A DNA stretch of 64,000 bases from Escherichia coli O127:H6 str. E2348/69 (lineage in GTDB: Bacteria; Pseudomonadota; Gammaproteobacteria; Enterobacterales; Enterobacteriaceae): the NCBI RefSeq assembly GCF_000026545.1, contig NC_011601.1. One strand, written 5' to 3'. Positions within the stretch are counted from its first letter, which is position 1, and each line of letters starts with the position of its first letter. Under the pieces are notes generated by a model. It was not told the origin of the DNA and searched no databases. It saw nothing but the letters and a program-made list of their open reading frames with translations. This document shows positions 15,063 to 30,403 of the stretch, piece after piece. The position numbers and the translations under genes are program-made.

Positions 15063-15200
15063 TTTTTGGTCCTTCTCTGGTGTGGTCTGGGAAGTGTAGA
15101 GCATGGCAGGGCGGGGTGCCTGGAGTGTGACAAAGGTTACACATCGCGGTATGCAATGCTGAAAATTTCAGCACTTAGCGAGGTGCGAGCAAGCTGGCGC

Positions 15201-15228
15201 TTGCATGGTGGCGTGCGACAGGTATAAT
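15201..15228 (+). promoter_or_regulatory. Putative sigma-70 promoter of leuX (TTGCAT-16 bp-TATAAT)
   Basis: Near-consensus -35/-10 hexamers about 30 bp upstream of the mature tRNA 5' end. Confidence 0.6.
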
Positions 15229-15257
15229 CCACAACGTTTTCCGCATACCTCTTCAGT

Positions 15258-15342
15258 GCCGAAGTGGCGAAATCGGTAGACGCAGTTGATTCAAAATCAA
15301 CCGTAGAAATACGTGCCGGTTCGAGTCCGGCCTTCGGCACCA
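15258..15342 (+). tRNA. leuX: tRNA-Leu (anticodon CAA)
   Basis: 85-nt sequence gccgaagtggcgaaatcggtagacgcagttgattCAAaatcaaccgtagaaatacgtgccggttcgagtccggccttcggcacca; long variable arm, CCA end encoded. Confidence 0.92.
15312..15342 (+). repeat. attL core: 31-bp 3' end of leuX, repeated exactly at 30373-30403
   Basis: cgtgccggttcgagtccggccttcggcacca occurs at both positions in direct orientation. Confidence 0.85.
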
Positions 15343-15859
15343 AGTCACTAAATTTCTTACAATACAATAAGTTAGGAAATAAAATCTATCTCTTTTGCCT
15401 GTAAGAAATGCTCTGTTATGTCCCTTGAAAAAGCCGCTGTGGTTGATAGTGGTAATTGGGATGTTAACTCATAGCGGCGTGTAGTTCCAAGCGTCAAACA
15501 CGTACTGACTCAACTTGAAAGCTATGACGTAGCCACCGTCTCTAAACAATCCCAAAAACTTTTAGTGAAGCGCATTTTAGCCCGATGCCCCCGTTCTGTC
15601 GCCGTCGCGAGACGCCGCAGGGGATAAACAGGTTTATGGTGGTCACGGTACTTGCAGACCATATGCAAGCTCTGCCAGCGGTTCGGCCTCGCTCCCCTTG
15701 GGTACATGGTCATCCTGATAAGCCTCACTAACTGACATAACTGTGATGTAGTCGCCAGAGGCTCCGCTTGTTGTCTTACCACCAACGGGGCTTATGACTT
15801 TTATTGTGTCAGTAAACGGCATATTATCAGTGATAGTTCAAACAGTTAGTAGGTAGAAA

Positions 15860-16408
15860 ATGAAGACCAAAAGAAAGAGCTTTGATCAATTCTTATGGCA
15901 TGATATTGATTTTGAAGATGATGCTGCAAAACAGGAAGAATACCTTGAATCTGCATTGCCACTTATTGGCCAGATTGTTATGTATTTCAATGCGCTAGAG
16001 AAAGAATTAGATAAAGTCATTTATGAAGGATTCAGCGATCGGTCAGATCAGTTAGGAATAATAATTGTGCATAACATGAATTATGCAGCAAAAGTCGAGT
16101 TATTTAGACGTCACTCCGAATTATTCCATTTGGGTGTTGGGCAGCATGTTGATATGTTTGAAGGTCTTATAAAGGATCTCAAGGAATGTGGACGGTTACG
16201 AAACATTACTGTACATGCTGACTGGGATAGCACTGATGTCGAAGGATATACATATTTAGGCATCAAAATAACTAACAATGGAATATCTCAGGAATATATC
16301 CAGTTTGACCTGGGGTCGTTGGAAAGTATCCTTCAATTGATTTTCAGTACGAGATATAAGTTGAGTGATTATTCAGACTTAAGGGGAGATATACTGGCTT
16401 CACATTAG
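15860..16408 (+). CDS. Hypothetical protein with HEPN-like R-N-x3-H motif (possible RNase/abortive-infection-type toxin)
   Basis: 182-aa ORF in AT-rich DNA; RLRNITVH motif at about residues 112-119 fits the HEPN Rx4-6H signature. Motif-level evidence only. Confidence 0.4.
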   Translation: MKTKRKSFDQFLWHDIDFEDDAAKQEEYLESALPLIGQIVMYFNALEKELDKVIYEGFSDRSDQLGIIIVHNMNYAAKVELFRRHSELFHLGVGQHVDMFEGLIKDLKECGRLRNITVHADWDSTDVEGYTYLGIKITNNGISQEYIQFDLGSLESILQLIFSTRYKLSDYSDLRGDILASH

Positions 16409-16477
16409 TGCCATTTTTTTACTAAATAGCTAACAAATACTATCGGTAAAAGACAACATCGCAATGGTAAAGCTGCC

Positions 16478-16948
16478 GTGAAGAAGACATTGATTGATTG
16501 GATCATAGAGACTGATAACTGGACAGGAATCGCAGCGTGGGCGGGTTTCGGTTTGTCAGTATTTCAGTTAGTAAAATCAAGAACATCGCTAAGACTTTAC
16601 CTCGGGTGTGATCAGCACGAGGACAGAATATACGTTTCGAACATAAGCGCACATGATGTAACGTTGAGTGTAGCCGGTGTCGTAACAGCCAGTGGACGCC
16701 TTAGAATGCTTTCCGACGAGTATTCGGATGAGAACATGATCACACCGATGTTACCAAGAAGGTTGAAAGCACGAGACGAAATGGTCTTGAACGTGCCCTT
16801 CATAAATAAGGCTCATCACAACAAAGTGCATCATCGTGGCGGGGTGTATATCAAAACATCTGACGGCAAGATGTTCAGTGATGTTTGTTGGATTAGACGC
16901 CAATGGTGGTGGTTACTGTCTGTAATACTGCGAGACACAAAGCGATAG
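16478..16948 (+). CDS. Hypothetical small membrane protein
   Basis: 156-aa ORF with an N-terminal hydrophobic helix (GIAAWAGFGLSVFQLV) and a Trp-rich hydrophobic C-terminus; AT-rich. Confidence 0.4.
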   Translation: MKKTLIDWIIETDNWTGIAAWAGFGLSVFQLVKSRTSLRLYLGCDQHEDRIYVSNISAHDVTLSVAGVVTASGRLRMLSDEYSDENMITPMLPRRLKARDEMVLNVPFINKAHHNKVHHRGGVYIKTSDGKMFSDVCWIRRQWWWLLSVILRDTKR

Positions 16949-17159
16949 GACAAGCGAGTCGCAGCTCATATGAGTGCCAACTGACATACGGCTCAGTTGG
17001 AATACTAGGATCGCGACTACGTGTTGTCTGCGAAAAACTGGGACTCAATAGATGGGTGTAGATTTAATTGATACGATCCTGTACGCGAATATTTCTCAGC
17101 ATAAATATCATCCCAGCGTCGGATTATGGTATTCAGAATGTGTGTGATGGTCTCTATCT

Positions 17160-17921
17160 TTATTCAGACCTTTTCTTCTTATCTTCCCATTCTTTTAAAG
17201 TGCTCTGATATCTTTCTTCATTTATTCTTTTTTCCTCGGTTCTGTCGCTTGAGTTGTAATTATCTGTTTTAATTTTCTTGGCTCCTTGGGATATCGGCCT
17301 CCAGTCCTCTCTAATTTTTTTCACTTGCTCGGCTATTTGTGTCATTGGACTCCTTGCTCCTAAATAGCTAACCCCCTCGAAAGAAGCCATATCATAAGAA
17401 TATTCATTGAGTTCTCTTTCTGTAGATCCGGGCTGTTTTGACCAACTGACACTAATAGAATAAATTTGATCCTTAATTTGCTCATACTTGCAGAGATTGC
17501 TGTTGAGAGAGTGTCCGTTTTTTAATACGCTGACCTTGCTAAATGGTACGCCTCTATTTTTTCTATGTTCTGCATTAACGAGAGGGGGATCAAATTCGAC
17601 CGCTATATCATAGGCTGGTGCATTTCCAGTATTAGCGATATTAATGTCAAAATAAAAAGCAGCCCAAGAGTTTGGTTCAAGAGTCACAACAACATGTGGT
17701 TGAACTGATGCGTCAACCATCCTTTTCGTTTCGTTTGCTAATAGCCTTGTTACTCTCCACAAGAAAAACGTAGCAACTGCTGTTAGCAGTGCTGCAAAAG
17801 CAGAGATCATTGTGCTTATAGTATCTATATGCTGTGTGATGAATTCGATCATTCTTCTCCCTCGAAATATAGTGCTTATTGTTATCAAAGGTAAGATAGC
17901 TCCCGGCTTGAAAAATTGCAC
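17160..17921 (-). CDS. Hypothetical membrane-anchored protein (probable true start at internal Met near 17852)
   Basis: 253-aa ORF; N-terminal TM helix (ISAFAALLTAVATFFLW) then a soluble domain and a charged K/E-rich C-terminus. Confidence 0.4.
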   Translation of the reverse strand: MQFFKPGAILPLITISTIFRGRRMIEFITQHIDTISTMISAFAALLTAVATFFLWRVTRLLANETKRMVDASVQPHVVVTLEPNSWAAFYFDINIANTGNAPAYDIAVEFDPPLVNAEHRKNRGVPFSKVSVLKNGHSLNSNLCKYEQIKDQIYSISVSWSKQPGSTERELNEYSYDMASFEGVSYLGARSPMTQIAEQVKKIREDWRPISQGAKKIKTDNYNSSDRTEEKRINEERYQSTLKEWEDKKKRSE

Positions 17922-18314
17922 GCTTATGGTTGCCCCTCCCTCGACGGTTAAGGCTTCAACTTCCCCCGTGCGCCTCTCCCAGCCGAAGGCTGGGCGGGCT
18001 GTATATCGATTTGCCTTCCTCTGTGGCGTTTATGACCCTGTTTCGCGTTCTTACCGTGAGGCTGTGGGTTAGGGTTACTCTTCTCTTTAAACGCTAAATC
18101 ACTCCTGAATCTCCACTGTTAAAGCACTTTGCGTTGATGCTTGGCGCTTCTCTTGGCTGTCGTTATTGTTTTGGCTTTGGTGTCATCAATCGTTCGATTC
18201 TTGCTACCTGTCTGAGTGATTACTATCTGGTATCATCAATTTAGGGTTTGACTAAATGCCACCACCAATGCAATGATGCTACCGTTTTGTGATACCAGAC
18301 GGGTGAGGTGAACC

Positions 18315-18884
18315 ATGAGGACTTTTATCTACTGCCGCGTTTCAACACGCGAGCAGGATACGCAGAATCAGGTGCTGGCTATTGAGCGTGCCGGGTATAA
18401 GGTGCCGGAGAGCAGGGTAATCAGCGAGGACATTTCCGGCAGCGTTCAGGCTATGCAGCGCCCTAAGTTCCGGGCGATGGTTGAGCACAAGCTGGAAGCG
18501 GGAGATCAGCTTGTCGTGCTGAAACTGGACAGGCTGGGGCGTGACAACATCGATGTGCAGCAGACCATCGACATGCTGTTAGAACGCGGCGTGAAGGTGG
18601 TGTCTCTTGACCTGCCAGCGCGTGATCTGACTTCATCTGAGGGCAAGCTAATCCGCCAGATGTTTGGAGCCTTTGCTGAGTTCGAGCGAAACCGTATCCG
18701 TGAGAGGACGCTGGACGGGCTGGAGAAGGCGAAAGCCAATGGCGTTAAGCTGGGACGCAAGGAAGCCACCGACACCACTCAAAAGGTGCAGGAGCTGCGG
18801 AGTGAGGGGCTGTCTCAATCGAAGGTAGCGAAGCATCTCGGCGTTAGCGTGAGCACCGTTAAACGTCACTGGAACAAGGGTTAG
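18315..18884 (+). CDS. Serine recombinase (resolvase/invertase family)
   Basis: 189 aa; catalytic-serine motif YCRVSTREQ at the N-terminus, LDRLGR motif, C-terminal HTH (SQSKVAKHLGVSVSTVKR). Confidence 0.85.
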   Translation: MRTFIYCRVSTREQDTQNQVLAIERAGYKVPESRVISEDISGSVQAMQRPKFRAMVEHKLEAGDQLVVLKLDRLGRDNIDVQQTIDMLLERGVKVVSLDLPARDLTSSEGKLIRQMFGAFAEFERNRIRERTLDGLEKAKANGVKLGRKEATDTTQKVQELRSEGLSQSKVAKHLGVSVSTVKRHWNKG

Positions 18885-19559
18885 GGGTGATGACCTACAA
18901 CCAAATGAGGTGCCAGCACTGGCCGTTACTGGGCTGTGGGAGATGGATGACCTACAGCTTTTGTATTTATTTCAGAGTGTTATGTTATGCGAAATCTCGT
19001 AATGCTATGATTTATAGTGTATTTTCGTATTACTTGCGGCTCTTGATGCGAAGAGATGGCGGGGCTTTAGCCGTGCCAGACGATGAGCATCAAGATCAGA
19101 TTGTGAATGTGATTCATCACTGAACAATTCGAGGGATGGGGCAGGGGAAGGGATCAAAGGCTGCGTTGTCCAATCACTAAGCTAGATTTGAAGCTGGTCA
19201 ACACGTTAGTAGTATCTTTAAAGTCGCATTTTAAATACATGTACAAAAAAGGGTTCTTCCCCTACATCCCCTTCTCCTAATCAGTGTTATCGCTTCACGC
19301 TCACCACTGGCTGCGCTTCTCGCTGTGCTCCAGCCCACTCGATCGCCTTTGGCTCATTCCCGGTCTTCGCCTGCTGTGATGCTCGGCCACTCTACGCAAC
19401 CGTGCTTGCCGTGGCATGCAACGCGGCGGGGATGTGTAGTGGAACGGTACTTTTTATCTATATTATTAATTTAATCAATCACATACTGTTATCGGTAGGT
19501 ATTCTTCAAAACATCTTCATTCATTTCTGTATCGTTCAATCATCTTTCTTGTTCGTTTC

Positions 19560-19700
19560 CTTTCAGGTCTTAGCCGTTGGTCATTGGTCTTACTGCCCGC
19601 TGTGCTACTGCCAGCTATGGCACGCCGTCACGGTCTACTGTCTGTCACCTGTCCTACTGCGTTCACTGTCTGCCGTCTGTCATCCTGTCGGATTCCATCC
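19560..19700. repeat. Pyrimidine-rich cluster of short iteron-like repeats (YTACTGYC / CTGTC) next to an AT-rich tract; candidate replication origin
   Basis: tcttactgcc, gctactgcc, tctactgtc, cctactgcg and cactgtctgcc within about 100 bp; AT-rich stretch at 19440-19560 immediately upstream. Confidence 0.3.
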
Positions 19701-20149
19701 GTTGACGTTCCGCGCTCGCTTGTTTCGGCTGCGCCGCGCTCGCTCTGCGTATCTAGCGATACTATATCACTATAGACACTTTCATAATTATATAATGATT
19801 ACAGTAACTTATGTTTTCTGTTTTAAAAGCTACTAATAAGGAGATATAGAGCATTACTTACCCGCTTTTGACCGACAAAAATCGCGTTGTTAAGTATTGC
19901 CAGCCCAGGCTCAATAAGGCTTAGCGAGGTGGTGGCTAAAAAATGAGCTAATGAAGGTATCTACTAAGGAGAAAGAATAACTCCCGAAGCGCGACAAACT
20001 CTCCGATTTTGAAAGTGACTATTAAGGCAGATAAAGACACTGACACTGTTGCTGACATGAAAACTTCTAAAAGGGCAGAGAGTCTGCCGAACCCGTACCG
20101 CTGACCCAACCTGAGCTAATACCTACCCCTATTTTCTGGAGATTTCACC

Positions 20150-21994
20150 ATGCCAACAAACCTACGCCGCCTGCTTGCGCAGGCTGCCGACGCTGACCCG
20201 CTCAATACTGCGGACGCAGATGTACAGCAAATGATCGCTGACGGGATTGTTATTCGACGTTCCAAGATATGCCCTGTAAAGCGTAAACCCGTTAAGGCGG
20301 CATACAACACAAAGACCGAAGAGTTTTATTACAATGCAGATGGCTCCGCGATGACCTTGCGGGAGTGGCGAACGCTGCACGGTGTTCAACCGAAGAAACA
20401 AAAACAGCGCTCTGACACTGGGTTGCGGCAAGTCATCCAGCCCGGCGACGCGATTCACTGCCGACGCGCTGAGATTGAGCAATGGCTTAATAAGAAGCCC
20501 GCTCGTTATGTTGACCCGCTGCCGCCAGATTTTCCCGGTGTTCGCGTAGACGATGCCGCATTGAAACCGCGCGAGCACGCCGTGCCGGAAGCGACAACCG
20601 GACAGAATGCTTTTCTCAAAGCCTGCCGCGAGTTCCTGATTTGCGATGAGAAGACCATGCGCCGTATCAGTCGGGGCATGAACCAAATGGAAGCTATGCG
20701 CAACGCAGATTTCAAACGCTACGGAGACTCAGGGGAGTTTCGTCAATTGTGGTGTGGAGAGTCGAAGCCTACCGAAGATAGATTTAATAGTTCTAATCAT
20801 CATTGTGACCCGAACGGCTTGGCTGCTTCGCCGTCTGTGCCGCCACTGAATACTGCACCGTATGAGTTCCGCCCGCTGGCTCGCTGTGACCGAAACGCAC
20901 GCGTTAGCCTGCTGCCACCTGATGGGCTGGAGTGGAGGCCGGGGCAGTTGTCTGTTGCTGATGCGATCTTTTCCCGTGGCAGTGATGTGCTTGCCGTACT
21001 GCCGACCGGGTATGGCAAAAGCGCCGCCTTCACTTATCCATTGATTTATGAGTCCCGCGCTGGCATTGGCCTGTCTGTAATCGTGGTTCCTACTAATACC
21101 CTTAAGCGTCAGATTCTCCGCCAGTTGCGGGAGGCTGGCATTCACGCTGTGGCCTTTGGCGATAAGCTACCGAGGCACCGCAACGCACAACAACTGGCGG
21201 GACTAGCAGCCGGGGCGTTCCGGGTTGCTGTTGTTTCGCCTGAACATCTGGTTCCGTCGAGTCAGGTTCTCGCGGCGCTGATGGCTTATGGCGTTGATCG
21301 TTTTATTATCGATGAGGCACACACGGTCAAAGACTGGGATTTCCGCCCAGCTTACGACGCAATGCAGCACACACTACAGAATGCTTTTCCCTCGGCTCAG
21401 CGCTGCGTGTTTACGGCTACTCTACTACGAGAAAATGAGCGCGGTTTAATGGAGGCGCTGGGATGCCGTGGCGATTACGTTACATTCCGTGCTGATGTTG
21501 CTCGCGAGAATATCCAGTTGATTCCGGTCAGGCAGTGCCGCCAGCGATACCGCGCGGCTGTTGGTCTGGTCGAGGCTCTGCCAGAGGAAGAGAAGACGCT
21601 CATTCTAGTCAATGACCTTAAGACGTTGCGGGCGTACCTGAAACTCTTCGGCGACCGGGCGCGCCCATATCACTCGAAGACGATGCACCTGAGCAACGAG
21701 GAACGCCACGCAAACGCTGAGTGGTTTGCCTCTGCGCCGGGCGCGATTCTGATTGCTACTAAAGCCTTCGGGCTGGGTGCTGATGTTCCTGATATCCGTA
21801 ACGTTGTCGTGACATACGTTCCCGATGACTTGCCTGATCTCGTTCAGATGATTGGACGAGCCGGGCGCGATGGGGAACCTGCCCGCGCTTTTCTGCTGTG
21901 GTCATCGCTGGCGCTGGATGTTGCTCCTGATGAGCTTGCTTACTTCTACCGCCCTGAAAACTGTAACTGGCAGTACATCGCTAAATACCTCTGA
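20150..21994 (+). CDS. RecQ-family superfamily-2 DNA helicase with a ~270-aa N-terminal domain of unknown function
   Basis: Helicase motifs LPTGYGKS (Walker A), IIDEAHTV (DEAH box) and GRAGRDG (RecQ-type motif VI). Confidence 0.7.
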   Translation: MPTNLRRLLAQAADADPLNTADADVQQMIADGIVIRRSKICPVKRKPVKAAYNTKTEEFYYNADGSAMTLREWRTLHGVQPKKQKQRSDTGLRQVIQPGDAIHCRRAEIEQWLNKKPARYVDPLPPDFPGVRVDDAALKPREHAVPEATTGQNAFLKACREFLICDEKTMRRISRGMNQMEAMRNADFKRYGDSGEFRQLWCGESKPTEDRFNSSNHHCDPNGLAASPSVPPLNTAPYEFRPLARCDRNARVSLLPPDGLEWRPGQLSVADAIFSRGSDVLAVLPTGYGKSAAFTYPLIYESRAGIGLSVIVVPTNTLKRQILRQLREAGIHAVAFGDKLPRHRNAQQLAGLAAGAFRVAVVSPEHLVPSSQVLAALMAYGVDRFIIDEAHTVKDWDFRPAYDAMQHTLQNAFPSAQRCVFTATLLRENERGLMEALGCRGDYVTFRADVARENIQLIPVRQCRQRYRAAVGLVEALPEEEKTLILVNDLKTLRAYLKLFGDRARPYHSKTMHLSNEERHANAEWFASAPGAILIATKAFGLGADVPDIRNVVVTYVPDDLPDLVQMIGRAGRDGEPARAFLLWSSLALDVAPDELAYFYRPENCNWQYIAKYL

Positions 21995-22031
21995 GTCGAA
22001 AGGCTCTCCCTGATTCTCTGGAGTTAATCAT

Positions 22032-22469
22032 ATGCCTGTTACCGAACATGCGCAGCGTCGTGCTGCGCGTGCGGATGCGCTCATCACCGCACAACTAGCC
22101 TTTGCCCTGAATGGGTACAACTGGGATGAACTGGCCGAACCTCATCGCAAGACCCTTAATCGTGAGGCCATCATTCGCGAGGTATCTACACCGCTGGAGC
22201 GATATTGCCTGCTGAATGATTGCGAGCCGTGGGAGTGTCTGGCCGCTGTACTGAACCGCATGAAAAGGCCGGATGGCTCGCGTCGCTGGAAAGCCGTCCG
22301 GTTGTCCGACCGGGTTTTCAATGGCCGGGTGCATCCAGTGCGCAAGACTCCTGATGAAGTTTACGCCGCCATTGCCCGCCGCTTGTTCCTGCCGAAGCCT
22401 GTGCATCAAGAAGTGATACAGCACATCCGTGCGCTTGGCTTGTTACCAGTTGGAGATAACCACCAATGA
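22032..22469 (+). CDS. Hypothetical protein
   Basis: 145-aa ORF, co-directional in a tightly packed operon. Confidence 0.4.
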   Translation: MPVTEHAQRRAARADALITAQLAFALNGYNWDELAEPHRKTLNREAIIREVSTPLERYCLLNDCEPWECLAAVLNRMKRPDGSRRWKAVRLSDRVFNGRVHPVRKTPDEVYAAIARRLFLPKPVHQEVIQHIRALGLLPVGDNHQ

Positions 22470-22675
22470 CGAAATCTGAATTTGAAAATGAAACATGGCG
22501 AATGAAGGGCTTGCTTCTTGGGGCGCTGATTCGCCGCCTTGAGGAAGATAAGGCTGGCGAGTCGCGCATGGTCGCAGCGGAGTTATCCAGTGCGGTCAAC
22601 TTCCTTAAGGCCAACGCCGTAGAAGCGCCGGACACATCATTCAACAACGTGTTCCCGGAGGATGACGAACAATGA
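22466..22675 (+). CDS. Hypothetical small protein
   Basis: 69-aa ORF with ATGA overlap with the upstream gene. Confidence 0.3.
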   Translation: MTKSEFENETWRMKGLLLGALIRRLEEDKAGESRMVAAELSSAVNFLKANAVEAPDTSFNNVFPEDDEQ

Positions 22676-22848
22676 CCCCTGAACAATTCAGACAATGGTT
22701 CGCCACGCTGCCACCGAACTATCAGAGCGCCGCACGCACCATGTACGACAACGCCCGCAAGTCGGGCATACATACCGCGTCAAGCCTTGCGCTGATTCAC
22801 ACGTTGGTTACTGACCAGATCAAATTTGATTCGGAGTTTAATTTATGA
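22672..22848 (+). CDS. Hypothetical small protein (58 aa)
   Basis: Not in the ORF track (below 60 aa); start and stop both overlap neighbours in ATGA fashion, suggesting translational coupling. Confidence 0.3.
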   Translation: MTPEQFRQWFATLPPNYQSAARTMYDNARKSGIHTASSLALIHTLVTDQIKFDSEFNL

Positions 22849-23408
22849 CTTTGAGTATTACCGATATCCAGCGCATTAACGCGCTGGCTCATAAGCACCT
22901 AAAGAACAATGAAGAGATTGCAGCGGAGACAGGTCATACCCTGACCGATATTGACGCTGTAATCCGTGGCGTCTATGTCGATGACTTGGCCGAACATTGG
23001 AAAGACGATGCTGATATTACTCTGGCGGAGTACAACGCCATCCGCAGCCGCTATAAGCCCGGCAAGTTGCACCGCGATACAGAGTTTATGATTGCCCGCG
23101 ATATGCTGATTCGCCCTGAGACTGTGCTGGCTATCGCCCATTCCCGCTTTAGCAACGTCCACACGCACCCAGTGCCGAAAGCCGTCAAAGCAAAGCCGGA
23201 GAAAGCGAAAGTAGTGCGCAAGTTAGTGCTTACTGATTTAGATGAAATCCACAAGTTAGAGCGCTTCGGTTGGCCTGCTGCGGAGATCGCCGGGAAGCTG
23301 GGCGTCCCTGTTGAGGTCGTCGCGCATGTGCAACGCTGCCTGAGAAATCGTTGGTCGTACCCGGATACTCTGGAGTCTGTTAACTCCAAATTCAGCGAGG
23401 CTGAATGA
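22845..23408 (+). CDS. Hypothetical protein with a possible C-terminal HTH
   Basis: 187-aa ORF; HTH-like segment GWPAAEIAGKLGVPVEVVAHVQRC. Confidence 0.4.
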   Translation: MTLSITDIQRINALAHKHLKNNEEIAAETGHTLTDIDAVIRGVYVDDLAEHWKDDADITLAEYNAIRSRYKPGKLHRDTEFMIARDMLIRPETVLAIAHSRFSNVHTHPVPKAVKAKPEKAKVVRKLVLTDLDEIHKLERFGWPAAEIAGKLGVPVEVVAHVQRCLRNRWSYPDTLESVNSKFSEAE

Positions 23409-23641
23409 TGGCAGAGAACGAACCGCTGCACCCCGCCGTTAACCCTGATCTCTACGTGAACCTTGACGAACAACGCGAAGGATACGCTCCGATTGAATCA
23501 CAGGGTTGGGATGTGCTGACGCAGAACCTGACCGGGAAAGGTCGAACTGACCCCAGCCAAACACTTAACCAGAATCCGAAACAACGCCCGCACGGCTCCG
23601 TTGGTGAGCGTCGTTGGCTTCGTAAACGTGGATTACTTTAA
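23405..23641 (+). CDS. Hypothetical small protein
   Basis: 78-aa ORF, overlapping start with the upstream gene. Confidence 0.3.
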   Translation: MMAENEPLHPAVNPDLYVNLDEQREGYAPIESQGWDVLTQNLTGKGRTDPSQTLNQNPKQRPHGSVGERRWLRKRGLL

Positions 23642-23653
23642 CGAGGAATTACC

Positions 23654-23893
23654 ATGAGCAAAACTATCGTATTGCTGCCGCCCCGCAAGAATACAGACTG
23701 GGCTGCACAATTAAAGCTGATTTCTGAATCGCTTGAGGTGAGTCAGGCAGACCTCGCCCACGCCTATCAGGTTGATCGTCGGGATATGGGTAAAGCGTAT
23801 CACGGTGTGCGCAAACTGCCGGAGCGTTGTGTGCCTGTTCATATGCTGTTGTTAGCGCAGGTACACGACTTTAGAGCATTATCAGGAGAATAA
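23654..23893 (+). CDS. Hypothetical small protein (possible HTH regulator)
   Basis: 79-aa ORF with an RBS-like aggaa upstream. Confidence 0.35.
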   Translation: MSKTIVLLPPRKNTDWAAQLKLISESLEVSQADLAHAYQVDRRDMGKAYHGVRKLPERCVPVHMLLLAQVHDFRALSGE

Positions 23894-23896
23894 TTT

Positions 23897-24577
23897 ATGT
23901 CTGACCAGAATGTTAATCCGTACCTTTCCGGTGCTGATGCTGCATCGCAGCAATCGCCATACATGGCTGCACCTGTTGGCGCTGACAATGGCGCATCCCG
24001 CTTTAGCTCTGTGCCTGCTGATGCTGATTTCCTCCGTACCCAGCCCGTTAACGGTAATGATGGCGGCCAATGGAATAATGGCAGTATCGCGAATCAGCAG
24101 GATCAGAACGCTGACAGCGCCGGGGCGCAGGTGGGCGATACTATCTCCCTGATGGATGGAACAGCTATTGAGTACACCGCCGAGCTGCAAGGATTGATGG
24201 GGCAGTTTCACCAGTCTGTCGAAAGCCAGCTAGGGCAGGGGACAGTTGACGCTATGTTGCAGTACGCTGGCACGCTCGACGCCGGGACGCAATCGACCCT
24301 TGAACGGATGGTTATGTCTGGCGACCCTGCGCAGATGCAGCGGGCGGTTCAGTATCTGCAAGAGCGTATGGCTGGCGGTTCCATTACCGGTTACGTCCCG
24401 AACGGCCAGACTGCCGCGCAACCTGTCGGAATGTCACATGCTGAGTTTATAGCAGCGTATGACCAGCTTTCGCAGTGGGCGCAGCAATCAGGGTATGGCC
24501 CCGGCCATCGCCAGTACGACGAACAATACCGTGCTCTGGTTGCGCAGCGCTCCGCTGGCAAACGTGCTGGTCGCTAA
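23897..24577 (+). CDS. Hypothetical acidic Q/A/G-rich protein (scaffolding-protein-like composition)
   Basis: 226-aa low-complexity protein immediately upstream of the capsid-like gene; compositional resemblance only. Confidence 0.35.
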   Translation: MSDQNVNPYLSGADAASQQSPYMAAPVGADNGASRFSSVPADADFLRTQPVNGNDGGQWNNGSIANQQDQNADSAGAQVGDTISLMDGTAIEYTAELQGLMGQFHQSVESQLGQGTVDAMLQYAGTLDAGTQSTLERMVMSGDPAQMQRAVQYLQERMAGGSITGYVPNGQTAAQPVGMSHAEFIAAYDQLSQWAQQSGYGPGHRQYDEQYRALVAQRSAGKRAGR

Positions 24578-24716
24578 CGCCCAACGGTGGAATGCGCCCT
24601 GCAAGACTGAGTGCGCACCAACCCGGTACTACCACACCAATCTAAGCGCATGAGTCCCCGCAAGCCGCATTCTGCGCGGCATCTGAAAGCCTGTTTTTAA
24701 TTAACCGAGGTTCGTA

Positions 24717-25349: not shown

Positions 25350-26345
25350 ATGGCCGATAACATTTACTCGCCTGACCAGTTCCGCCCACATTATGGCGGG
25401 GTGGAATCTGACAATGATATTCACATCGAGGCTTATGACCGGGATGTCCAGACCCGTTTAGAGTCCAAATCCGTATTTCTGGCCGAGGGGCTGTCTACAT
25501 ACAGGCCGCTGAAAGCCAGCAACCAATATCGTGTTGATCGCCTGAGTGGTGATCTGGAGGTGAAGGGCAGAACCGCAGGGCAATCGCTGGAGCCTACCGC
25601 TGTTAAGTCGGATAAGCTGATTATCTCTGTGGATACGCTGAGTTATATCCGCATCCCGATTGACTATCAGGATGACTGGACAGCACCCACCTTTCGCTCA
25701 GAGCTGAGCCGCAATATCGGTACTGCTCACGCTAAATTCTACGACGAAGCGCACACCATCCAGCTAATCAAAGCGACTGACTTTGTACCGCCGCCGACGT
25801 TGCAACCAACGTTTAACCCGCTGACGGATAATGTTGTCTCGCTCGACCTGACAGCGGGGAGCGAAGAGGACGCCGCAAACGAATTGTCTCACGCCGTAAA
25901 AGCGGCTGCTAATCGCTTTCTCACTGAGAAAGATATTCCGGTGGCCGAGCTGGTACTGCTTATCGACCCGGCTTGGTTCAGCATCCTGATGGAACATAAG
26001 AAGCTGATGAACATCCGTTACAGCCGGGATAGTGGCAACGATTACGCATGGCGTCGAGTTGGCTATGTCGCTTGGGTACGAGTCATTGAGCTGAACAGTT
26101 ACCCGCAGGGAGCCATTACCGCGCATGAACTGGGCGCTGATTATAATGTGACCGCAGGGGAAGCGCTGACACGGGCGACGCTGTTCCGGCCTGCGTCTGT
26201 ACTTGTGACAGTCGAAGCGCAGAGCGTCATCAATCGCCAGTGGGATGAGGAACGCGAAATGACAATGGTGATGGACTCATATCGCCTGTTCAATGTTGGG
26301 CTGCGCCGCCCGGACTGCGTTATCAATTTCCGACAAGCTGCATAA
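25350..26345 (+). CDS. Hypothetical protein, possibly a phage-type structural (capsid-like) protein
   Basis: 331-aa ORF with strong RBS (aggag); size and position after a scaffold-like gene suggest a structural role; no motif-level proof. Confidence 0.35.
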   Translation: MADNIYSPDQFRPHYGGVESDNDIHIEAYDRDVQTRLESKSVFLAEGLSTYRPLKASNQYRVDRLSGDLEVKGRTAGQSLEPTAVKSDKLIISVDTLSYIRIPIDYQDDWTAPTFRSELSRNIGTAHAKFYDEAHTIQLIKATDFVPPPTLQPTFNPLTDNVVSLDLTAGSEEDAANELSHAVKAAANRFLTEKDIPVAELVLLIDPAWFSILMEHKKLMNIRYSRDSGNDYAWRRVGYVAWVRVIELNSYPQGAITAHELGADYNVTAGEALTRATLFRPASVLVTVEAQSVINRQWDEEREMTMVMDSYRLFNVGLRRPDCVINFRQAA

Positions 26346-29027: not shown

Positions 29028-30239
29028 TTAGATGTTTATTCCTTCATGCTGGATGAGTTCGACATACTTACCGATCTCTATAGGGGAAGCTGCATTTTTC
29101 GAGTAAGTTTTGAAGCTCTCTGTACTCCCGCGCTCATGACCGACGAGCAGGGCAATACGATCTTCTGGCACTTGAGCACGGTCGAGCTGTTGCACAAAAG
29201 CATGGCGGAGTGAGTGAAACACTTTTCTCTCTGCGGCAGGCTCGCCAAGAGCTTTACGCTTTGCTCGCGTGAATTGCTGCGTATGCCACGTTGAGCGCTT
29301 CCCATCGGCCCGGTCTGTTATTGATGCGTGATAGAACAGAAAACCGCTATGTGTGGTCTTGAGCAATGACTTCACGAGAGGGATTATCTTGCTGTGTACA
29401 GGGACGATTCGCGCCGCGCTCTTAGTCTTCCCCTCGGTGATCTCAAAGCACAATATACCCTCGATAGTTTTAATACTGCTTTCACGTAGCGTACATATCT
29501 CATTGATCCGCATACCGCTGTATGCACCAATAGCCGTTACCGCCTTCATCTCGTCATCAAGCAAGGCATAGACCTTTGCCAGCTCTCCCGGTGCGAAGAC
29601 TTCATAGCTGACCTTGCTGCTTTTTGCTTCGAGCGCATGACCGCGCCAAGGATTGTCCTGTGGTGCATCGTGATAGCGATTGCGTGCCAGATCCCATATC
29701 TGCGCCAGTGCGCTTATATAGTTTTGGATAGTTTGGGGCGCTCGCTCAGTTTTGAGCTTATCTAACCAGCCTGTAACTATGGTTCGGTTAATATCCCGCA
29801 ACTGAACATCTTTCTTTTTCAAGTGGGTTAACAGCACCTCTACGGCTTTGTTGGTCTTGGATAACGTGGTTAGCTTTCGCTTCTCGCTGTATTGAAGCAG
29901 GTACAAATCACGCATTTTTAGCAAGGAAGGGCAAGCCTGAATCGATGCACCAAACGATGCGGGGGCTTCCTTGGCGTACACACTGACACGGCGTAGCTCA
30001 TCAATGATTTGGTCTACAGATGAGCCGCCTTGTGGCTTTAGCAGATTCCGTAAGCGAGTCCATTCCAGAGCAATAGCATCTCGAAACAATCGCGCTTGGC
30101 GTATGTCTCGTGTTCCTGTGCTTTTCATAAAGTAGCGCTTCCCTTGGAACAGGTGGCGCATATAGCTGGGAATAGCTATCCGCACGAGGTAATTCCCGCA
30201 GGGATCTAAAACTAGATAACGATCTCTCTTGAAACTCAT
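29028..30239 (-). CDS. Tyrosine-type site-specific integrase
   Basis: 403-aa ORF with C-terminal catalytic motifs (HSLRHAF, LLVGHERG, downstream Tyr); adjacent to the attR repeat. Confidence 0.9.
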   Translation of the reverse strand: MSFKRDRYLVLDPCGNYLVRIAIPSYMRHLFQGKRYFMKSTGTRDIRQARLFRDAIALEWTRLRNLLKPQGGSSVDQIIDELRRVSVYAKEAPASFGASIQACPSLLKMRDLYLLQYSEKRKLTTLSKTNKAVEVLLTHLKKKDVQLRDINRTIVTGWLDKLKTERAPQTIQNYISALAQIWDLARNRYHDAPQDNPWRGHALEAKSSKVSYEVFAPGELAKVYALLDDEMKAVTAIGAYSGMRINEICTLRESSIKTIEGILCFEITEGKTKSAARIVPVHSKIIPLVKSLLKTTHSGFLFYHASITDRADGKRSTWHTQQFTRAKRKALGEPAAERKVFHSLRHAFVQQLDRAQVPEDRIALLVGHERGSTESFKTYSKNAASPIEIGKYVELIQHEGINI

Positions 30240-30372: not shown

Positions 30373-30403
30373 CGTGCCGGTTCGAGTCCGGCCTTCGGCA
30401 CCA
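30373..30403 (+). repeat. attR core: 31-bp direct repeat of the leuX 3' end
   Basis: Exact copy of 15312-15342. Confidence 0.85.

Follow-up and report, generated by a model that had tools for sequence, protein, structure and literature searches.

Three open reading frames (ORFs) were analysed in a window of 64,000 nucleotides from Escherichia coli O127:H6 str. E2348/69 (contig NC_011601.1), where they lie directly inside the leuX end of an integrated island: ORF1 (15860-16408, plus strand), ORF2 (16478-16948, plus strand, read from GTG) and ORF3 (17160-17921, minus strand, read from GTG). A sequence-only reading of this stretch had taken them for one cassette, in which a HEPN-like protein and two membrane proteins would form an anti-phage or addiction module. 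The results showed that they are three independently swapped cargo genes and not one system, and the reading as a HEPN-plus-membrane-effector module does not hold. They are uncharacterised single-gene candidates in a defence hotspot of a mobile element. The explanation that we prefer overall, with reasonable but not high confidence, is a mosaic hotspot that holds a stand-alone HEPN protein (ORF1), a separate ORF3 and an orphan ORF2.

Distribution of the three genes

The occurrence of the genes was compared in 5,426 complete E. coli genomes. ORF1 was present in 3, ORF2 in 13 and ORF3-like sequence in 575, and all three were combined in E2348/69 only. The compared segment of the window (15200-18300) was 100% identical to E. 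coli O127:H6 E2348/69, and the entire stretch was found in three of the genomes, each an E2348/69 assembly. Beyond this lineage, both ORF2 and ORF3 were missing at nine of the ten other ORF1 loci. Kosakonia arachidis carries att, ORF1 and ORF2 at 97% nucleotide identity (window 15325-16947) without ORF3; about 480 bp take the place of the part from the end of ORF2 to 17901, which holds ORF3, and homology is found again at 17902-18159 (94.6%). In E. coli NCTC11023, the segment 15548-15796 (98%), ORF3 (87.5% nucleotide identity) and the backbone at 18178-24581 (94%) were present, with a 190-aa gene and a DUF3800 gene instead of ORF1 and ORF2. ORF3 is convergent with the other two genes, and no operon is shared. 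Neither the conserved co-occurrence nor the operon-like arrangement of a multi-gene system was found for ORF1-ORF3; a lack of conserved co-occurrence across genomes had been named beforehand as an outcome that would speak against a single cassette.

Comparison with homologues indicates that all three are genuine coding genes under purifying selection. The ratio of nonsynonymous to synonymous substitution rates (dN/dS) was 0.04 for ORF1 and 0.10-0.13 for ORF3, and ORF2 gave a dN of 0.11-0.17 with saturated dS.

A cargo hotspot with fixed borders between leuX and the recombinase gene

The gene leuX, encoding tRNA-Leu(CAA), was located at 15258-15342 on the plus strand by ARAGORN and by the Rfam tRNA model (59 bits). 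Its last 31 bp, CGTGCCGGTTCGAGTCCGGCCTTCGGCACCA, form the attL core (15312-15342, plus strand) and recur as an exact direct repeat, the attR core, at 30373-30403 (plus strand); the expected number of such repeats was 0 (100 shuffles). The island between the two leuX-end repeats is 15.06 kb long, and a tyrosine integrase gene lies at its attR end (29028-30239, minus strand; phrog_1 integrase, E 2.9e-35; 'site-specific integrase' in RefSeq). Because the 31-bp repeats flank the element and the integrase is at the far end, the three ORFs are situated directly inside attL. The sequence-only reading was right on this point and on the AT-rich, leuX-adjacent character of the DNA, as the GC content was 0.41 across 16-18 kb versus 0.53-0.55 in the yjgR-ahr chromosomal flank.

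The left border of the slot is an att-proximal non-coding arm (15343-15859) that has no RefSeq gene and is conserved in sister elements regardless of cargo; its part 15433-15505 was 89% identical in Erwinia and Raoultella elements at tRNA-Thr. The right border (17902-18314), which is conserved in Kosakonia and NCTC11023, lies upstream of a serine recombinase gene of the resolvase/invertase type (18315-18884, plus strand; phrog_125 DNA invertase, E 5e-55; 'recombinase family protein' in RefSeq). This recombinase, which scored 73 bits against the NCBIfam Mpi-type invertase, under the model cut-off, is the first backbone gene past the hotspot. The recombinase-helicase backbone was detected in 61 of the 5,426 E. 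coli genomes, at leuX or tRNA-Gly, and the slot between att and the recombinase gene varied among backbones that were otherwise 92-95% identical. It contained a methyltransferase and an XcyI-family restriction enzyme, that is, a type II restriction-modification (R-M) system, in A16; AbiJ-NTD4 (PADLOC PDC-S32, E 9e-103) and an IS3-disrupted ORF3 homologue in OkiPb01685; a 190-aa gene, DUF3800 (PDC-M04A) and a 136-aa gene in LD26-1 and 550; and other genes without recognised function in S1 and USMARC-50748. The earlier proposal of a tRNA-proximal cargo hotspot is thus supported by the R-M, AbiJ-NTD4 and DUF3800 genes in the sister slots.

Hotspots of P2 and P4 are reported to have fixed borders and exchanged contents, and most of their previously untested unknown loci proved protective (Rousset et al. 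2022, PMC9122126; bioRxiv 10.64898/2026.02.27.708500); six of eight randomly picked unknown P4 hotspot loci gave phage protection (bioRxiv 10.64898/2026.02.27.708500). The E2348/69 slot resembles the P2/P4 hotspots (PMC9122126, PMC9519451) in its fixed borders, its swapped contents and the R-M and Abi-type occupants of its sisters, but its carrier island differs from P2 and P4 in having a capsid gene, an HNH endonuclease, a helicase and two recombinases. The region 15343-18314 is therefore regarded as a variable cargo hotspot, and the slot of E2348/69 is probably a mosaic of three single-gene modules, which recent recombination is rather likely to have joined. An invertible or shufflon-like cassette run by the adjacent serine recombinase was considered and rejected, as no significant inverted repeats were found around the cargo.

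ORF1 is predicted to be a stand-alone HEPN-superfamily protein

ORF1 (WP_000851053, 182 aa) contains the sequence RLRNITVH, corresponding to R114-N115-x3-H119. HEPN proteins are recognised by a conserved Rx4-6H motif, typically R-[NQ]-x3-H, which ORF1 possesses. The block DLKECGRLRNxxxHAxW was invariant in 13 close homologues, including R, N and H, and in 108 full-length representatives of the family (50% clustering) the three residues were kept in 103 (R), 105 (N) and 104 (H). A full hidden Markov model search of 1.84 billion cluster representatives detected 486 relatives at E<=1e-3 (representatives at 50% clustering), and almost every one is a stand-alone protein with a length of 170-195 aa; a word-indexed search returned 17 only.

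The AlphaFold2 model of ORF1 (predicted local distance difference test score, pLDDT, 77; predicted template modelling score 0.75) is a helical bundle with a long C-terminal helix. The RNxxxH motif is placed at the end of helix 99-119, and an inserted beta-hairpin (131-147) separates the motif helix from the final one. In Foldseek searches of AFDB50, the best matches were RiboL-PSP-HEPN-annotated proteins (E 1.9e-11, TM-score 0.76), and RiboL-PSP, Cthe_2314, MAE_28990, Apea and AbiU2 HEPN proteins were matched with E values from 1.9e-11 to 1e-4. DUF4145 proteins were among the matches as well. The fold matches included the solved HEPN-MNT toxin structures 7ae2, 5yep and 8xdj. The model is an all-alpha bundle that can be superposed on known HEPN domains.

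Searches with the sequence itself found no match for ORF1 in Pfam even at E<=10, in NCBIfam or in PHROGs, none in PADLOC-DB v2.0.0 at E<=1, and none when the PDB sequences were searched with ORF1 profiles. Weak Pfam matches appeared among 51 relatives, three to HEPN_Cthe2314 (best 9e-4) and four to HEPN_RiboL-PSP (best 2e-3), and relatives also matched CARF_HEPN, Csx1 and PD-T4-2_B weakly. In one relative of 568 aa, 'HEPN/Toprim N-terminal domain 1' (HEPN_Toprim_N, E 9e-9) and a Schlafen AlbA_2 domain precede the ORF1-like domain, which is C-terminal. The conserved motif, the modelled fold and this fusion agree with the earlier description of ORF1 as HEPN-like, and as far as predicted fold and motif go, the assignment has good support. 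An RNase activity of ORF1 is predicted from these features.

By model comparison, the ORF1 family appears to be one that is not yet in Pfam, PADLOC or NCBIfam, with the RiboL-PSP and Cthe_2314 HEPN families as the closest. RiboL-PSP-HEPN (PF18735) and Cthe_2314-like HEPN (PF18730) were reportedly assigned to the HEPN superfamily by Anantharaman and colleagues in 2013. ORF1 shares with them a stand-alone form of about 180 aa, an all-alpha core and the conserved R-N-x3-H motif, and they are its best Foldseek neighbours (E 1.9e-11 to 1e-6, TM-score 0.7-0.8); unlike them, it has the hairpin insert 131-147 and falls outside both Pfam models at E<=10. AbiJ-NTD4 (PDC-S32) occupies the first position of the same hotspot in OkiPb01685 and is likewise a single-gene candidate for HEPN-type abortive infection (Abi), but it has 274 aa with an N-terminal domain, and a kinship with ORF1 was rejected for lack of profile similarity (hhalign probability 0.2%). 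A 182-aa gene upstream of an ORF3 homologue at another locus (L041) was also compared as a possible ORF1 relative, with a negative result.

An all-against-all comparison of neighbours within 3.5 kb revealed no conserved neighbour or MNT partner across 11 ORF1 loci; a serine recombinase near two other loci was the sole shared neighbour. Since no conserved antitoxin-like partner of ORF1 was found at these loci, the interpretation as an addiction, or toxin-antitoxin (TA), module is left without support. The other loci are from Erwinia, Rahnella, Chryseobacterium, Methylophaga and Bacteroidota, and the Chryseobacterium indologenes relative is broken into two pieces. A search of 50,697 phage records and 72,556 plasmid records found no ORF1.

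The DNA upstream of ORF1 was inspected for a small antitoxin gene or RNA. The minus strand at 15522-15822 contains ORFs of 87 and 59 aa, in a segment that is 98% identical in NCTC11023 and about 75% identical in Rahnella; the Rahnella copy is found downstream of the ORF1 homologue. The ORFs were rejected as an antitoxin, as they are frame-broken in Rahnella and the segment is kept in elements without ORF1. In the region, Rfam detected the tRNA and nothing else, besides a chance ctRNA match (E 0.86). We regard the segment as a probable non-coding arm or gene remnant, not as a partner of ORF1.

ORF2 appears to be an orphan of another cassette

ORF2 has 28 homologues of 63-97% identity in Enterobacterales and is not annotated in E2348/69 by the RefSeq pipeline (PGAP). 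The frame is open for 156 aa from GTG. Its homologues have 152 aa; therefore, TTG at 16490 is the probable start, and the length given in the sequence-only reading is probably four residues too long. Homology begins within a few codons of this start, where the ATG has been replaced.

The protein has an N-terminal segment of weak hydrophobicity and ends in a W-rich tail. Its best 17-residue Kyte-Doolittle window reached 1.44, and all 19-residue windows were at or below 1.4. The hydrophobic segment is short, so that the label 'membrane protein' is uncertain for ORF2; of the two membrane proteins that had been claimed, this one is doubtful. ORF2 had no match in Pfam, NCBIfam or PHROGs and none in PADLOC-DB v2.0.0 at E<=1. 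A paralogy with ORF3, suggested by a transmembrane helix followed by a beta domain, was rejected (hhalign probability 0.2%).

ORF2 homologues from Raoultella, Klebsiella and E. coli VREC0864 occupy the same slot of related islands, where each is preceded by two genes that the window lacks, namely an overlapping gene of 75 aa and a divergent one of about 260 aa. From this comparison, ORF2 appears to be an orphan of a cassette encoding proteins of about 260, 75 and 152 aa, from which the partners and the ATG start have been lost; its expression may be poor, or it may be a passenger. The divergent gene (about 260-290 aa), the overlapping 75-aa gene and the ORF2-type gene make up a recurrent trio on islands of Raoultella, Klebsiella and E. 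coli (loci L005, 5823-7459, and L030, 5242-6851). No member of this trio matched Pfam or PADLOC, and it represents a separate candidate three-gene cassette.

ORF3 belongs to a membrane protein family of the P2 Z/fun slot

ORF3 (WP_000569068; 17160-17852, minus strand) starts at ATG 17852 in RefSeq, in the PHROG profile and in all homologues, whereas the open frame extends to GTG at 17921 (253 aa). The protein thus almost certainly has 230 aa, and the earlier figure of 253 aa is superseded; that of 182 aa for ORF1 stands. Residues 24-251 of the longer frame matched positions 1-228 of the 230 in phrog_11802 (function unknown) with E 6.2e-127. Hydropathy analysis revealed one strong N-terminal transmembrane helix, consistent with a single-pass protein, and for ORF3 the earlier membrane assignment is retained. 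In the AlphaFold2 model (pLDDT 85.5), this helix is followed by a seven-strand beta-sandwich and C-terminal charged helices. Conservation peaks in the helix and the juxtamembrane stretch LTAVATFFLWRVTxxLAxETKRM. Because positive residues follow the helix (positive-inside rule), an N-out, C-in topology is predicted.

In the P2-like phages R18C and P2-EC53, homologues with 84% identity are flanked by the tail-fibre and sheath genes, and a P2-like prophage of E. coli D6 has a homologue in the same placement. The Z-region homologue of P2-EC53 is labelled 'putative lysogenic conversion protein' in its record; the 'inverted repeats' annotated in that record were not recovered. By sequence similarity, ORF3 is assigned to this phrog_11802 / P2 Z-region 'lysogenic conversion protein' family. 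The locus of the fun gene is described as a second defence-enriched hotspot of P2 (Vassallo et al. 2022, PMC9519451). ORF3 is thus close to a slot gene of the P2 Z/fun hotspot, but its family is not among the validated PD-/PDC systems of PADLOC v2.

The family comprises 243 matches at >=45% identity from Enterobacterales, Xanthomonas, sphingomonads and Rhizobium. No Pfam domain was found in ORF3 or in 36 relatives, and ORF3 matched no PADLOC-DB v2.0.0 family at E<=1 and none in NCBIfam; accordingly, the PADLOC check identified no model for any of the three genes. Homologues were found beside integrases at island ends, beside a TIR-domain gene and alone between housekeeping genes. About 10% of the complete E. 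coli genomes contain an ORF3 homologue, mostly truncated or IS3-disrupted, and at least 80% of the gene is present in 103.

AbiJ-NTD4, a convergent ORF3-like gene and IS3 occur together in two settings, namely the P4-like element of 2013C-3252 near the fec operon and the leuX island of OkiPb01685 (2065-4903), and the ORF3 copy is truncated or IS3-split in both. ORF3-like sequence at about 75% nucleotide identity is present in about 460 E. coli genomes, of which this one P4-like, fec-adjacent locus was inspected (E. coli 2013C-3252, 5044-7760). The pattern suggests that cargo blocks are swapped between different leuX-using elements.

The carrier island and its flanks

The backbone of the island consists of the serine recombinase gene, a RecQ-like helicase gene, a capsid gene, an HNH endonuclease gene, an endonuclease VII-like gene and the tyrosine integrase gene. 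The capsid gene (25350-26345, phrog_267) encodes a protein 56% identical to the major capsid protein of the virulent podophages Lidtsur, forsur and Kc261, whose genomes are about 42 kb, with wider matches in Klebsiella, Acinetobacter, Pseudomonas and Pectobacterium phages. An integrase, att repeats and a size of 10-15 kb are typical of phage satellites, and the island has the first two and, at 15.06 kb, the third. Capsid-forming phage-inducible chromosomal islands (cf-PICI) are marked by portal, protease, TerS/TerL and capsid genes, and P4 by psu, sid, delta and alpha. No portal gene, terminase gene or P4 marker was recognised in the RefSeq annotation and the PHROG search of the island; hence, it fits neither cf-PICI nor P4. 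The island may be a satellite of virulent phiKMV-type phages, and the 56% capsid identity points to Lidtsur-type podophages as candidate helpers. Relatives of the island were found in Klebsiella (tRNA-Gly), Raoultella and Erwinia (both tRNA-Thr). Our literature search found no description of the E2348/69 leuX island and returned nothing for the accessions, P2-EC53 or RiboL-PSP.

The helicase gene (20150-21994) matched the PADLOC model DpdF PDLC02858 with E 1.9e-277, scored 124 bits against the NCBIfam DpdF model (cut-off 550) and is RecQ-like. RefSeq lists no other dpd gene within the island or in its flanks, and the 'DpdF' call probably reflects a backbone replication gene, not a Dpd system. 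The gap of 1.26 kb between the recombinase and helicase genes (18885-20149) has no annotated gene and is partly variable among sister elements; many genomes cover 67-68% of the query 17950-20200. This gap may hold the origin or a regulatory region of the island.

Immediately past attR (30628-38300 and beyond), RefSeq annotates the type I R-M genes hsdR, hsdS and hsdM, a DUF4942 gene and a McrB-family gene; at the leuX locus of E2348/69, the satellite-like element and a defence island are therefore arranged in tandem. In the upstream chromosomal flank (4426-6052 in L001 coordinates), a frameshifted pseudogene with an internal stop lies between tabA and argF (RefSeq) and is unrelated to the cargo.

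Proposed mechanism and alternative explanations

ORF1 would be a metal-independent RNase with an active site formed by the RNxxxH motifs in an oligomer. It would remain inactive until a phage cue is received, after which cleavage of tRNA or other RNA would lead to abortive infection. The precedent for such a single-protein model is HepS, a HEPN protein that on its own detects a tail-tip protein of the phage and cuts the anticodon loops of tRNAs (PMC13043305). HepS, from the Salmonella Gifsy-1 prophage (PMC13043305, PDB 9oik), is like ORF1 a stand-alone HEPN protein on a mobile element with no partner gene, but the profile searches of PDB sequences detected no sequence kinship between them, and HepS has 218 aa versus 182 aa for ORF1. 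ORF3 would act independently as an inner-membrane-anchored phage-exclusion or abortive-infection protein on the cytoplasmic face, and ORF2 would be a passenger or a newly recruited partner.

One three-gene anti-phage system, with ORF1 as HEPN RNase and ORF2 and ORF3 as membrane effectors (sensors or pore-forming executors), could be argued from the adjacency of the genes inside a defence-type hotspot, from the ORF1-ORF2 block shared by E. coli and Kosakonia, and from the superficial recurrence of a HEPN-type gene, AbiJ-NTD4, next to ORF3 homologues in OkiPb01685 and a leuX P4-like element. It is nevertheless very unlikely, as the trio is confined to the E2348/69 lineage, the nearest ORF1-ORF2 block has no ORF3, nearly all other ORF1 loci lack both partners, the normal partners of ORF2 are other genes, and ORF3 is convergent with ORF1 and ORF2, shares no operon with them and is solitary in the P2 Z/fun locus; the combination of AbiJ, ORF3 and IS3, in which ORF3 is disrupted or truncated, resembles one shared leuX block rather than independent co-occurrence. 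Only slightly less improbable is that ORF1 is the toxin of an island-stabilising TA or addiction module, with ORF2, a small unannotated peptide or an RNA as antitoxin. HEPN proteins are common TA toxins, HEPN-MNT structures are among the fold matches, and ORF2 lies 70 nt downstream of ORF1, on the same strand and in a block transferred as a unit; yet the 11 ORF1 loci are without MNT or any other conserved neighbour, ORF2 is not beside ORF1 relatives of 50-84% identity and was captured without its own start codon and upstream gene, the only Rfam RNA in the region is tRNA, and the upstream arm is kept in elements without ORF1.

The genes might also serve the satellite life cycle or host fitness, through interference with or exploitation of a helper phage, lysogenic conversion of the envelope or functions related to the virulence of enteropathogenic E. 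coli. The first label of the ORF3 family, the satellite-like island with its podophage-type capsid gene and the placement of some ORF3 homologues between housekeeping genes are consistent with such roles. We consider this unlikely, given that the slot contents vary on closely similar backbones and are thus accessory cargo rather than core genes, that the recognisable occupants of the slot are R-M and Abi-type genes, that ORF1 is missing from the phage and plasmid records, and that 'lysogenic conversion' is an annotation label only. Least probable is the view that the island is degenerating and carries the genes as decaying passengers with no function: the loss of the ATG and upstream partner of ORF2 and its omission by PGAP, the two-piece relative in Chryseobacterium indologenes and the disruption of ORF3 by IS3 in many E. 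coli would fit decay, but all three frames are intact and under strong purifying selection relative to homologues, and the att repeats, integrase and backbone are intact as well.

Several points also weigh against the preferred explanation, that of a mosaic hotspot with single-gene modules. The functions of all three families are ones that we infer, and none of the three genes matches PADLOC v2, NCBIfam or Pfam. The location in a hotspot is an argument from association, and such slots hold non-defence cargo as well. ORF1 and ORF2 may have recently formed a functional pair, as their joint travel in Kosakonia would allow.

Significance

If ORF1 and ORF3 are active, they would represent two single-gene anti-phage families missed by Pfam, NCBIfam and PADLOC. 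P2-like prophages of E. coli commonly carry relatives of ORF3. A further, tentative proposal is that ORF1 founds an unrecognised family of stand-alone HEPN Abi proteins (about 490 clusters in Proteobacteria and Bacteroidota) with partner-free sensing and RNA cleavage, that ORF3 is a widespread membrane phage-exclusion protein, and that both reside in a hotspot of undescribed satellites of phiKMV/Lidtsur-type podophages. For annotation, adjacency in such slots does not define a system, because their contents are recombinational mosaics. The fixed-border hotspot described here belongs to a little-studied island family, found at leuX, tRNA-Gly and tRNA-Thr, and, like the hotspots of P2 and P4, it could be a place to look for defence genes.

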